Below are positions 2,261-7,515 of a stretch of DNA of 64,000 nucleotides, piece by piece (within the stretch, counting starts at the first letter, position 1; each line of letters starts with the position of its first letter). The translations under genes were made by a program, and so were the position numbers. This DNA comes from Escherichia phage vB_EcoM_11B_SA_NWU. The notes under the pieces are model-generated. The model saw nothing but the letters and a program-made list of their open reading frames with translations, searched no databases and was not told the origin of the DNA. The stretch lies in sequence record OR062527, one strand, 5' to 3'.

Positions 2261-3265
2261 TTAGCTCACCAACTCAATCCAAGCCGGACGAAGTACATCT
2301 TGTACCATTTTAACTAATTCCTTTTTAACCAAAGAAGGATTATCCGCTTGAGTTAGAGTAATACCTTCACGAGAAGTTTCTTCCAAAATATCTTGAACAG
2401 TTAGTCCCATCACCTTTCCAAAATCTTTAGGACCAATTTCGCCAATTTTAGAAATAACATTATTTACTCGGTTCAGTGTAACATAACAAGCTAAAATTCC
2501 CATCAGCTTATTATCAGCTTCTGATAGTTCAACTTTAGCTTTAATAGGCTTATCAGACTTTTTCTTTTCACTAAATTTGGAATTCTTACATTTAATTGCT
2601 ACACGATTTCCATTATGAAGCCAAGAAGGATAACAAGGTTTCAATACATATCCTTCAGCGGTAAACACTTCACCTTTTGCTTCGGCATTCCAAACGCATT
2701 TATTTGCATCAACTAATCCAGCATGGTCTACTGTAAAATTATAATCTTGGACGACAGAATCTAAATCATTTGGCAATTTAATAAGCTCTTCAAATTTACC
2801 GCGACCTAAAAGTGGAGCCATTTTAAATTTGAATGTATTACAGAATGATTCCATCATATAATCATCGACATAAGTCACATCACCACTTTCTGTAGTGACA
2901 ATAATGTCAAATACATAAAAATCTTTATCACCATAATCAACATTCTTCTGAATGCCAGGTCCAGCGAATTCGCCAAAGACTTGATAAGATACAACCGCTG
3001 AAGTTTCCATAATATCTTGTACTGCTTTAATGGAATCAGCGTAATTCTTTAGAATAATTTCATACCCAAAGAAATCTTCAGCAGGAAGAATAGGACCAGT
3101 ACGTTTAGCGCAAGTTACTTTATCACGCTCAATAATCAATGAGAAATTTGTGCCGTGAATCTTTTCACGAGCTACCCATTCGCCGCCAGTCAATCCTAAG
3201 CTATAAAGTTTTTCAATAAATTTAGAGTTGTAATGATTTTCAAGACTGCTATACTTTTTAAACAT
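2261..3265 (-). CDS. rnlB: RNA ligase 2 (Rnl2)
   Basis: 334 aa; nucleotidyltransferase lysine motif KIHGTN; matches T4 Rnl2 (gene 24.1) from memory. Confidence 0.93.
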
Positions 3266-3807: not shown

Positions 3808-3839
3808 CTTTCAAAATGAAGAAAGGGGCCGAAGCCCCT
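3808..3839 (-). terminator. Stem-loop aggggc-cgaa-gcccct with downstream T-rich run on minus strand, after hoc
   Basis: Inverted repeat; minus-strand transcript reads hairpin then uuucuucauuuu. Confidence 0.55.
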
Positions 3840-3844
3840 TACGA

Positions 3845-5263
3845 TTATGGATAGGTATAGATGATACCAGTTTCTAAAGCAGTTTTATGAATGATGTATC
3901 CATTACGTGATTCTTGAACATCAACTTCTGGATAGTCTTTCATCATCTTCTGAAGAGTGTAACGATGCAAGTAGTACTTACTATCTGGATCGTCAGTTTT
4001 CCAATCTTTACCTTCTTCAGTCATTTTTTGGATTTCATCCATAACCCACCAACCGCACCAGATGTAAGCTGAAGTACGGTGTGGAAGAGGATGAACATAA
4101 GGCAATTCACCTTCTGGTTCCGGAGCAACTTTATCAGTCACTTGAACTTGACCTGTTGTTTTAACTGTTTTGCTATCATAATCAGTTGCTGCAACGACAG
4201 CAGTAACTTCAATAGTTTGACTTCCAACAGATGAGGTATCGACAGTATATACGTTAGTTGACCCTTCTACAGGAGAAGAATCTTTCTTCCACGAGTAAGT
4301 AATTTGTGCTTCTTCTGGAGCATCCGTAACATTAGCCGTAAATGTAGCCGAAGCATCTTGCTGAACGTTAATAGAAGGAGGAGTCAATGTAACCTGTGGA
4401 TTCATTGTCTTCTTATTAACCGTTAATGATACTTCATTCGAAGTAACTTCCTTTTCATTGTAATTTTCAGCAGTTACTTGGGCTACGCATTTAATTCTTT
4501 TTACTCCACTTGTAGTTGGAGTATAGCTAAATGTAGAGTTAGTTTCTCCACCAACTTGTGAATCATCTACATACCACTGATACGTAGCAGATGCTCCATC
4601 AGGTTGAGAAGCTAAGGCAGCAGTAAATTGAACTGGGGTTCCAATTACTCCAGCTGAAGGACTATCGGGAGTTACTGCCAAAGTAGTTGTCTGTGTCTTT
4701 TTATTAACAGTCAGTGACACTTCATTAGAAGTAACTTCTTTTGCATCATAATCTGTCGCGGTTACTTGAGCTACACACTTAATTGTTTTAACTCCACTTG
4801 TGTCAGGAGTGTAATTGAATGTAGCGCTAGTCGCTTCGCTCACAGGAGAACTGTCAACGTACCATTGATACGTAGCAGATGCGCCTGATGGCTGCGAAGC
4901 CAAAGCAGCGGTAAATTTAACAGCTGTTCCAATCACTCCAGCCGCAGGACTAGCAGGAGTTACGGCTAAGGTAGTCGTCTGTGTCTTATTTTTAACTGTG
5001 ATAGTTGTTGTCGCTTCAGCCGTTTCCGGGCCTCCTTCAGAAAGTGTATTTGTTGCAACTACTTTAATAGTCTTTTGACCAGCAGGACCTTTTAATACAT
5101 AATCAAAAGTTGCTTCAGACCCATCTTGTGGAGCATTATCTACACTCCAAGCATAAGTAATAGTTCCACCTCCAGTTTCACCACTGGGTGCAGCAGTAAA
5201 CTGCTTGGTTTCATCAATAACTCCTGACGGTGTTTTAGGAGTTATATCAACTGTAAAAGCCAT
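3845..5263 (-). CDS. hoc: Highly immunogenic outer capsid protein Hoc, 472 aa, with one extra Ig-like domain relative to the 376-aa T4 Hoc
   Basis: N- and C-terminal regions match T4 Hoc from memory; contains two adjacent ~96-aa repeats beginning NKKTQTTTLAVTP. Confidence 0.9.
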   Translation of the reverse strand: MAFTVDITPKTPSGVIDETKQFTAAPSGETGGGTITYAWSVDNAPQDGSEATFDYVLKGPAGQKTIKVVATNTLSEGGPETAEATTTITVKNKTQTTTLAVTPASPAAGVIGTAVKFTAALASQPSGASATYQWYVDSSPVSEATSATFNYTPDTSGVKTIKCVAQVTATDYDAKEVTSNEVSLTVNKKTQTTTLAVTPDSPSAGVIGTPVQFTAALASQPDGASATYQWYVDDSQVGGETNSTFSYTPTTSGVKRIKCVAQVTAENYNEKEVTSNEVSLTVNKKTMNPQVTLTPPSINVQQDASATFTANVTDAPEEAQITYSWKKDSSPVEGSTNVYTVDTSSVGSQTIEVTAVVAATDYDSKTVKTTGQVQVTDKVAPEPEGELPYVHPLPHRTSAYIWCGWWVMDEIQKMTEEGKDWKTDDPDSKYYLHRYTLQKMMKDYPEVDVQESRNGYIIHKTALETGIIYTYP

Positions 5264-5272
5264 AAGTTATCC

Positions 5273-5953
5273 TTATTTTAATGTTACGAAAGAAGAATTG
5301 CGTGTTTCACGAATTAGAACTGATCCGTCGCGATTAATGTAATAAATTAAGCTAAACAGAGTTTGGTGTGCTGACGCGTGTTCAAAACTAGTTGGATGAG
5401 ATTTCCAATCAGGAGTTTCAGCGATCCATTGATAAATCCACCAAGGAACCGTACAGAATCCTGGATTTTTCCCCAATAATTGAAGATTCGGGCTAAAGTT
5501 TTCCGGAAGAGTAAATACAGACGGCTTTTCAGATTCAATAATCTCAGCTACAGCTTGTTCAAACTTTTCTTCAACAAAAGGAGTGTCTTCAATCAAAACA
5601 TCAGTATTTTCAGGAATTTTATCCGTTTCTACCACTTCAATTTTAATATCAGATTTAACTGGAGAATCAATCAGAAGTGCTGCTTCTGGATTAACTTCTT
5701 CATCGTCATATTTTAATCCCTCTGCAGCATCAGCAGCATCAATTAAGTCTTTAATAGATAACCCATCAGTCTCTGGCATAGGTTCACTAGCGAGCTTCTG
5801 GAGGGCTTCTTCAATATCAACAACAATATTATCAAAAGATTTATTCTTTTTGACCTTTATACCAAACTGTTCAGCATATTCAGCTAATTTAGCTTTAGCT
5901 TCTTTATTATCATCAAGAGCCTTCAGCTCTGCAATATAATCTTTATCTATCAT
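5273..5953 (-). CDS. inh: Inhibitor of prohead protease (Inh)
   Basis: 226-aa acidic protein directly upstream of hoc as in T4; assignment by position and size. Confidence 0.7.
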   Translation of the reverse strand: MIDKDYIAELKALDDNKEAKAKLAEYAEQFGIKVKKNKSFDNIVVDIEEALQKLASEPMPETDGLSIKDLIDAADAAEGLKYDDEEVNPEAALLIDSPVKSDIKIEVVETDKIPENTDVLIEDTPFVEEKFEQAVAEIIESEKPSVFTLPENFSPNLQLLGKNPGFCTVPWWIYQWIAETPDWKSHPTSFEHASAHQTLFSLIYYINRDGSVLIRETRNSSFVTLK

Positions 5954-6003: not shown

Positions 6004-7515
6004 ATGACTGACATTAAAGTACATTTTTATGATTTTAGTCACGTGAGAATTGATTGTGAAGAAAGTACATTTCATGAACTCCGTGATTTCTTTAGCTTTG
6101 AAGCTGATGGGTATCGTTTTAATCCGAAATACAAATATGGCCACTGGGATGGACGAATCCGTCTTTTAGATTATAATCGCCTTCTTCCATTCGGCTTAGT
6201 CGGGCAAATTAAAAAGTTCTGTGATAACTTTGGCTATAAAGCCTGGATTGACCCACAAATTAACGAAAAAGAAGAATTATCAAGAAAAGATTTTGATGAA
6301 TGGCTTTCTAAATTAGAAATCTATTCAGGAAATAAAAGAATTGAACCACACTGGTATCAAAAAGATGCAGTGTTCGAAGGATTAGTTAATCGTCGTAGAA
6401 TTCTTAATCTTCCAACTTCGGCTGGTAAATCTTTAATTCAAGCTTTGCTTGCACGTTATTATTTGGAAAATTATGAAGGTAAAATTCTTATCATTGTTCC
6501 AACAACTGCTCTGACAACTCAGATGGCTGATGACTTTGTTGACTATCGTTTATTCAGTCATGCAATGATAAAGAAAATTGGTGGCGGAGCATCAAAAGAT
6601 GATAAATATAAAAATGATGCACCAGTCGTTGTTGGTACATGGCAAACTGTAGTAAAACAACCAAAAGAATGGTTCTCACAGTTTGGAATGATGATGAATG
6701 ATGAATGCCATCTTGCTACAGGAAAAAGTATTTCATCTATCATATCAGGTTTAAATAACTGTATGTTCAAATTTGGTCTATCTGGTTCATTACGTGACGG
6801 CAAAGCCAATATCATGCAGTATGTTGGAATGTTTGGCGAAATATTTAAGCCAGTAACGACTTCTAAGTTAATGGAAGATGGACAAGTAACTGAGCTAAAA
6901 ATTAATAGTATTTTTCTTCGTTATCCTGATGAGTTCACTACTAAATTAAAGGGAAAAACTTACCAAGAAGAAATAAAAATTATTACGGGGCTTAGTAAAA
7001 GAAATAAATGGATCGCTAAATTAGCTATTAAGCTTGCGCAAAAAGATGAAAACGCTTTTGTCATGTTTAAACATGTATCGCACGGTAAAGCTATTTTCGA
7101 TTTAATTAAAAATGAATACGATAAAGTTTATTACGTATCAGGGGAAGTTGATACCGAAACACGCAATATAATGAAAACCTTAGCTGAAAATGGTAAAGGA
7201 ATAATTATAGTAGCTAGTTATGGTGTATTTTCTACTGGTATTTCAGTTAAAAATCTGCATCACGTTGTTTTAGCGCACGGTGTTAAATCAAAAATCATTG
7301 TATTACAAACAATCGGTCGTGTATTACGTAAGCATGGTTCTAAGACAATAGCAACAGTCTGGGACCTCATAGATGATTGCGGTGTTAAGCCAAAATCTGC
7401 TAATACGAAAAAGAAATATGTTCATTTGAACTATCTTTTAAAACACGGCATTGATCGTATTCAGCGCTACGCGGATGAAAAATTTAATTACGTAATGAAA
7501 ACAGTTAATTTATAA
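6004..7515 (+). CDS. uvsW: UvsW DNA/RNA helicase (SF2)
   Basis: 503 aa; Walker A PTSAGKS, DECH box; matches T4 UvsW from memory. Confidence 0.95.
   Translation: MTDIKVHFYDFSHVRIDCEESTFHELRDFFSFEADGYRFNPKYKYGHWDGRIRLLDYNRLLPFGLVGQIKKFCDNFGYKAWIDPQINEKEELSRKDFDEWLSKLEIYSGNKRIEPHWYQKDAVFEGLVNRRRILNLPTSAGKSLIQALLARYYLENYEGKILIIVPTTALTTQMADDFVDYRLFSHAMIKKIGGGASKDDKYKNDAPVVVGTWQTVVKQPKEWFSQFGMMMNDECHLATGKSISSIISGLNNCMFKFGLSGSLRDGKANIMQYVGMFGEIFKPVTTSKLMEDGQVTELKINSIFLRYPDEFTTKLKGKTYQEEIKIITGLSKRNKWIAKLAIKLAQKDENAFVMFKHVSHGKAIFDLIKNEYDKVYYVSGEVDTETRNIMKTLAENGKGIIIVASYGVFSTGISVKNLHHVVLAHGVKSKIIVLQTIGRVLRKHGSKTIATVWDLIDDCGVKPKSANTKKKYVHLNYLLKHGIDRIQRYADEKFNYVMKTVNL

Follow-up and report, generated by a model that had tools for sequence, protein, structure and literature searches.

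The window, by which we mean the whole 64,000-nucleotide stretch of DNA analyzed here (Escherichia phage vB_EcoM_11B_SA_NWU, OR062527), carries a gene for the outer capsid decoration protein Hoc in which one immunoglobulin (Ig)-like unit, D2, is present as two tandem copies, A and B, so that the protein has four Ig-like domains. In the explanation that we consider very probably correct, this is a Tequatrovirus hoc gene with a polymorphic 288-bp module, whose A and B copies are old paralogues, whose copy number has changed by unequal recombination, and whose product would form a longer fibre displaying two D2 surfaces. The four-Ig allele itself is long known and common, and its finding here adds nothing new.

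Identification and Genomic Setting of hoc

The coding sequence is an intact minus-strand frame of 472 aa plus stop codon at 3845..5263 of the window, and its product matches T4 Hoc (PDB 5vf3_Z, 376 aa) with E = 1.6e-222 in a phmmer search. At the nucleotide level it is 98.8% identical to hoc of phage vB-Eco-KMB42 and 93.3% identical to hoc of RB30. Judged by its sequence, this gene is hoc, because its C-terminal 94 aa are 98.9% identical to residues 283-376 of T4 Hoc (dN/dS 0.02) and because it occupies the T4-type genomic position. The source of the window is a Tequatrovirus (T4-like coliphage); over its first 25 kb, Escherichia phages ECP52 and vB-Eco-KMB42 match it at 98.6-98.7% identity. 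The gene lies downstream of inh, upstream of small open reading frames and RNA ligase 2, and opposite uvsW, as is conserved in T4-type genomes, and phage Ec_O157kw has the identical gene order around hoc with the names annotated there. The region contains the following features:

6004-7515, divergent: uvsW-like open reading frame, beyond inh (open reading frame list)
5273-5953: inh-like open reading frame, on one flank of hoc (open reading frame list)
3845..5263, minus strand: hoc coding sequence, four-Ig (RB30-type) allele of the T4-type outer capsid decoration protein (open reading frame list, phmmer, nucleotide identity)
3813..3840, minus strand: intrinsic-terminator-like hairpin AAGGGGCTTCGGCCCCTT, then a T-rich tail (terminator scan and sequence)
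2261-3265: RNA-ligase-2-like open reading frame (rnlB), preceded by two small open reading frames, on the other flank of hoc (open reading frame list)

The GC-rich hairpin begins 4 nt past the hoc stop codon, and the T4 record X14869 has a putative terminator annotated at the equivalent place; T4 Hoc (376 aa; PDB 5vf3 and 8t1x; X14869) shares with the window both the genomic position of its gene and the place of the terminator. No exact match to the T4 late promoter motif TATAAATA occurs on the minus strand from hoc to the start of inh, and genome-wide this motif is not enriched relative to shuffled sequences. As a whole protein, window Hoc is acidic (pI 4.64), as are other Hoc proteins (PMC10385173).

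Domain Architecture and the Tandem D2 Repeat

We divided the protein into five regions, listed here from the N-terminus:

4991..5263, minus strand: Ig-like domain D1, aa 1-91 (unit HMM and AlphaFold2 model boundaries)
4703..4990, minus strand: D2 copy A, aa 92-187, first tandem unit, with central patch SSPVSEATSATF (repeats; A-type at 13 of 14 near-fixed sites)
4415..4702, minus strand: D2 copy B, aa 188-283, second tandem unit, with central patch DSQVGGETNSTF (repeats; B-type at 14 of 14 diagnostic sites)
4130..4414, minus strand: Ig-like domain D3, aa 284-378 (Pfam Ig_3/I-set at residues 289-356; AlphaFold2 strands 290-376)
3848..4129, minus strand: C-terminal capsid-binding domain, aa 379-472 (identity to T4 Hoc residues 283-376)

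In Tandem Repeats Finder the array spans 4406-4996 with a period of 288, 2.1 copies, 78% matches and a score of 707, and a repeat search likewise returns two 288-nt copies of 76% identity spaced 288 nt apart. The units at 4703-4990 and 4415-4702 are in frame and agree at 220 of 288 nt, an agreement with a chance probability of ~7e-72 under a binomial model with local base composition; at the protein level, 76 of 96 residues are identical (79%). A 472-aa protein with an in-frame intragenic repeat of 2 x 288 nt over the D2 region is the RB30-type form. An earlier note on this DNA, made from its letters alone, had described a Hoc with a tandemly duplicated Ig-like unit, and the repeat is found at exactly the coordinates it gave, as two in-frame units of ~288 bp and ~96 aa each. 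The motifs that it named are present in both copies (NKTQTTTLAVTP / KKTQTTTLAVTP, ATYQWYVD, IKCVAQVTA and EVTSNEVSLTV). Its comparison of 472 aa with 376 aa in T4 also holds, the T4 length being confirmed by PDB 5vf3_Z and GenBank X14869, and in alignment T4 Hoc matches residues 1-113 and 201-472 and is one 96-aa unit short.

Assemblies are well known to go wrong at tandem repeats, and the array could in principle have been collapsed or expanded in assembly. This is vanishingly improbable: 68 of the 288 positions differ between the units, so that reads can be placed unambiguously, the hoc frame is intact, and the same architecture recurs in many phages that were sequenced independently, RB30 among them with a GenBank record of the single gene. 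The same three observations rule out a chance repeat.

A profile built from both D2 copies scores ~190 bits on each copy and only ~35 bits on D1 and D3, and because of this difference we treat the two copies as a distinct D2 type; D3 is only about 40% identical to either. In Pfam searches of window Hoc, PKD, Ig_2 and BiPBP_C exceed their curated cut-offs, and Ig_3, at 26.6 bits, falls short of its cut-off of 30. With 32 homologues as input, AlphaFold2 gives a model (mean pLDDT 83.7) that contains four beta-sandwich domains, at residues 1-91, 92-187, 188-283 and 284-378, with block pLDDT values of ~80-96 over residues 1-380, followed by a C-terminal region of low pLDDT, as expected of a domain that becomes ordered on the capsid. 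The model supports a predicted arrangement of four Ig-like domains and a C-terminal capsid-binding region, the architecture for which the earlier note had proposed structure prediction as a check. Foldseek searches of the PDB return four-Ig proteins as top matches (Sidekick-2 and Dscam1, E ~1e-14); TM-scores are low because inter-domain geometry differs, and the match carries no functional information.

D2 Copy Number among Relatives

Hoc homologues carry 1-10 Ig domains upon a conserved C-terminal anchor (PMC10385173). We determined the architecture of hoc in 60 evenly spaced records out of the 658 phage records that match the window gene:

Three Ig (T4 length), ~1131-1137 bp: 32/60 records, the commonest architecture
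Four Ig, 1419-1425 bp in a single piece: 19/60 records
Two Ig, ~850 bp: 3/60 records
Five Ig, 1707 bp (T4_ev151, 568 aa): 1/60 records
Unclear form, 1161-bp span, 82% covered: 1/60 records
C-terminal domain only: 4/60 records

The best 120 protein clusters fall into the length classes of 365-378 aa (81 clusters), 468-472 aa (30 clusters) and 567-570 aa (9 clusters), in which exactly one, two and three D2-type units, respectively, score above 100 bits. The 376, 472 and 568 aa forms are separated by in-frame steps of 96 aa. Copy number of the D2-type unit, from one to three in proteins of three to five Ig domains, is a widespread polymorphism of Tequatrovirus.

A close known counterpart is Hoc of RB30 (AY101183, AAM52483.1), which like window Hoc has 472 aa and two 288-nt repeats in A-then-B order; the two differ as alleles ordinarily do, copy A being 94% and copy B 93% identical between the two phages, with a few switches of A/B state near the 3' end of the units. 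GenBank AY101183 already annotates five domain regions and a repeat_region in this gene, and states that the repeat yields an additional immunoglobulin-like domain. Within the library that was searched we found no paper explicitly on the four-Ig RB30-type Hoc, and the prior record of this form is the RB30 annotation together with general statements on variation in Ig number. The duplication reported in the earlier note is therefore real but not distinctive, since about one third of relatives are four-Ig, five-Ig forms exist and RB30 was already annotated. The condition under which the note itself would have called the duplication non-distinctive, four Ig domains in all relatives, thus holds in part.

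Five-Ig Hoc proteins of Tequatrovirus (567-570 aa; T4_ev151, UGKSEcP1/2) resemble window Hoc in D1, D3, the C-terminus and the 96-aa D2-type unit, but have three such units (A, B and a further diverged, B-like one) with 77-81% nucleotide identity between units. One example is the hoc of phage T4_ev151 (L039 31-1737, LR597660.1), and proteins P0001-P0008 are also of this form. Two-Ig Hoc proteins (283 aa; BYEP01, KIT06, phiPNJ-9) share D1, one D2-type unit and the C-terminal domain with window Hoc, but lack D3 entirely and have a single D2 unit; the 283-aa variant without D3 has been published for phiPNJ-9 (PMC11853027). In BYEP01 (L004 301-1152, OR757453.1) D2 is mosaic and D3 is deleted exactly at the domain boundaries, and KIT06 (H94) and F2 (H96) are further two-Ig cases.

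Hoc of Klebsiella phage Marfa (471 aa) has four Ig modules, two of them adjacent near-duplicates, and a homologous C-terminal anchor, as window Hoc does, but is only ~50% identical to it, and its duplicated module is of the D3 type, not D2. The neighbouring D3-type copies are identical at 75 of 94 aa in Marfa (L010 601-2016, MN044033.1) and at 55 of 94 aa in a relative (L009). Because the duplicated unit is of the D3 type, this duplication is independent of the D2 event. The Klebsiella T4-like group to which Marfa belongs (with L009, L011 and L015) also includes three-Ig and two-Ig relatives. PTE-Eco15 Hoc (L040 661-2076, PQ352352.2) likewise has 471 aa and four Ig domains, which are just 30-40% identical to one another, on a C-terminal domain with 97.5% DNA identity to that of the window. 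In PTE-Eco15, ES19 (H98) and ESh27 (H99), the last ~276 nt of hoc are 95-97.5% identical to the window gene and the Ig region is too diverged for megablast, a pattern suggesting that the capsid anchor stays in place while the Ig region is swapped as a cassette. Phage vB_EcoM_PhAPEC2 (L037, KF562341.1), classed as Mosigvirus, has a Tequatrovirus-type hoc with ~87% nucleotide identity to the window gene and a multi-switch D2 unit, consistent with exchange of hoc across genera.

Several database entries for these genes have odd labels. Phage Hoc sequence is filed under bacterial assemblies (proteins P0014, P0019, P0008 and others), one four-Ig cluster being labelled "endonuclease [Shigella sonnei]" and several clusters "PKD domain-containing protein [Escherichia coli]"; the taxonomy line of record NC_041919.1, from the T4-like phage HP3, reads Rosemountvirus. 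In phages vB_EcoM-UFV05, 06, 09, 10 and 11 the hoc region matches the window gene at 95% identity from end to end but is annotated as two to four separate coding sequences, a sign of frameshifts within the repeat region or of annotation splits there.

Age of the Copies and the A/B Pattern

Copies A and B of the window differ by dS = 1.23 with dN/dS = 0.10, and those of RB30 by dS 1.05 with dN/dS 0.13, whereas orthologous hoc segments differ between phages by dS 0.07-0.24. Because of this difference in synonymous divergence we regard A and B as old paralogues. Judged by these values, the split between A and B goes back several times further than that among the sampled alleles, and purifying selection acts on each copy.

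That window Hoc is 96 aa longer than the reference T4 Hoc might suggest a recent, lineage-specific duplication that makes it unusual among T4 relatives. We consider this extremely unlikely. DNA identity between the copies is no more than 76%, and their near-saturated synonymous divergence (dS = 1.23) rules out a recent origin; the A-then-B order is also found in RB30, JoYop, PP01, Mizar, sb1, HP3, U115 and an IMG/VR contig; and the four-Ig form occurs in 19 of 60 sampled records and was annotated earlier in RB30.

We compared A and B site by site in nine four-Ig genes (the window and the eight just named) and thirteen single-copy genes. A precedes B in 9/9 four-Ig genes. Near-fixed nucleotide differences between the copies number 14, all within nt 99-248 of the unit, and the unit ends (the first ~98 and last ~40 nt) have none, the polymorphisms there being shared by both copies. 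Amino-acid differences between A and B cluster at unit positions 49-56 (SPVSEATSA versus SQVGGETNS), and many other variable positions of the unit are polymorphic in both copies. The confinement of the A/B contrast to the central 150 nt might stem from recombination or gene conversion acting on the ends, or from selection for distinct centres.

Painted with these sites, the 13 single-copy alleles show every pattern: pure A (2/13; teqdroes, L008), pure B (2/13; RB9, L006), A-to-B (3/13; Ec_O157kw, teqhad, TadeuszReichstein), B-to-A (2/13; T4, L007) and multi-switch mosaics (4/13; BYEP01, EO1, ESh18, PhAPEC2). T4 Hoc, which unlike window Hoc has a single D2 unit, is copy-A-like in the first ~57 nt of that unit when set against the two window copies; of the near-fixed sites, the ten in nt 99-195 are B-type and the four in nt 236-248 A-type. 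Copy B is the window copy closest to it (91.3% nucleotide identity). Over 25 kb, Ec_O157kw matches the window at 98.2% identity, yet it is three-Ig with a single chimeric D2 unit, which indicates that copy number changes between close relatives.

Mechanism and Direction of Change

Unequal homologous recombination between the in-frame units is the likely mechanism of these changes in copy number, because forms differ in unit-length, in-frame steps, because copy number differs between near-identical genomes, and because single-copy alleles are mosaic. The 376, 472 and 568 aa variants differ by whole units with the frame kept, and Ec_O157kw, otherwise nearly identical to the window, has one unit fewer. 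The heavy recombination of mixed T-even infections would provide the setting in which such crossovers most likely arise. A-to-B chimeras, the form that one crossover in an A-B tandem should leave, make up 3/13 single-copy alleles; with the B-to-A and multi-switch alleles among the others, further allelic recombination or gene conversion is needed, and ordinary events of this kind would have added to the unequal crossovers. In the preferred explanation, A and B would be old paralogues that were both retained under purifying selection. In the window gene, A and B share no exact in-register match longer than 17 nt. Efficient homologous recombination would want a longer stretch, so this allele may seldom collapse today, and changes in copy number may be rare or may proceed through other alleles.

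The earlier note spoke of an extra module. That hoc carries tandem D2-type modules stands; the word "extra", by contrast, presumes that the T4 form is ancestral, while the copies are old (dS ~1.2) and the T4 D2 unit is itself a B/A mosaic. The window lineage may have gained a module or T4 may have lost one, and both fit the sequence data. An outgroup search of IMG/VR, covering 21 loci, returned distant loci (~50% identity, Klebsiella-phage type) that have no orthologous A/B pair and show the independent D3-type duplication, and which leave the D2 event unpolarized.

One possibility, which we think somewhat doubtful, is that the tandem was born diverged, an unequal crossover in a mixed infection having joined an A-type and a B-type single-copy allele, with the three-Ig form ancestral. 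Single-copy alleles of pure A type (teqdroes, L008) and of pure B type (RB9, L006) are both known, three Ig is the commonest architecture, and B-to-A mosaics such as that of T4 do not arise from one unequal A-B crossover and would form easily between single-copy alleles. However, D2 alone would then have to hold two allelic classes at dS ~1.2, against dS <=0.24 for the D1, D3 and C-terminal segments around it, and a crossover in the first ~98 or last ~40 nt of the unit, the stretches in which the copies have no near-fixed differences, can also turn an A-B tandem into a pure A or pure B single.

We would offer the opposite direction only as an unlikely conjecture: the three-Ig T4 Hoc would have arisen secondarily, as a collapsed and mosaic derivative of an older A-B gene, selection would keep the A-then-B order and the differences in nt 99-248, and copy number would be a standing polymorphism. 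Adjacent domains in natural multidomain proteins are usually less than ~40% identical; the neighbouring D2 copies of window Hoc are 79% identical. If this conjecture were true, it would mean selection for two distinct D2 surfaces, or selection against misfolding of adjacent near-identical Ig domains.

Predicted Consequences for the Hoc Fibre and Mucin Binding

T4 Hoc, a dispensable protein, occupies the centres of gp23 hexamers as a monomer, with 155 copies per capsid. Because the C-terminal anchor of window Hoc is essentially identical to that of T4, we infer that its attachment at the gp23 hexamer centre should be unchanged. T4 Hoc is a 180 Å fibre (PMC10385173), and it is plausible that the window fibre is one Ig module longer, by an expected ~4-4.5 nm or about a quarter of that length. 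Under the preferred explanation of two retained D2 paralogues, D1 would project roughly one Ig module beyond its reach in T4, and the D2 surface would be presented twice, including two EVSLTVN tails. That the additional module alters binding, as the earlier note had supposed, is plausible.

The sequence EVSLTVN, which contains a reported mucin-binding motif, occurs twice in window Hoc, at residues 181-187 and 277-283. In the two-Ig Hoc of phiPNJ-9, binding to MUC2 maps to D2 residues S183-L184-T185 (PMC11853027). The second D2 copy might on these grounds, and given purifying selection on both copies, serve mainly as a second ligand site that raises avidity for fucosylated mucin glycans, not as a spacer. 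We regard this as improbable, though worth stating. The D2 unit of the three-Ig phiPNJ-6 Hoc contains the same SLT, yet isolated D2 does not bind MUC2, and binding in that protein maps to E29 and G33 of D1 (PMC11150434), both of which are present in D1 of window Hoc. In the AlphaFold2 model, moreover, SLT forms the conserved final beta-strand, so that its conservation is explicable with no role in binding.

Hoc is a scaffold for phage display and vaccines, and the "bacteriophage adherence to mucus" model is built on it; for this reason the number of Ig modules matters, fibre length and module number bearing on display geometry and on mucus binding. If T4 Hoc were indeed a collapsed form of an older A-B gene, which we doubt, module copy number in Tequatrovirus would be a standing polymorphism that tunes the reach of the fibre and its avidity in mucus.
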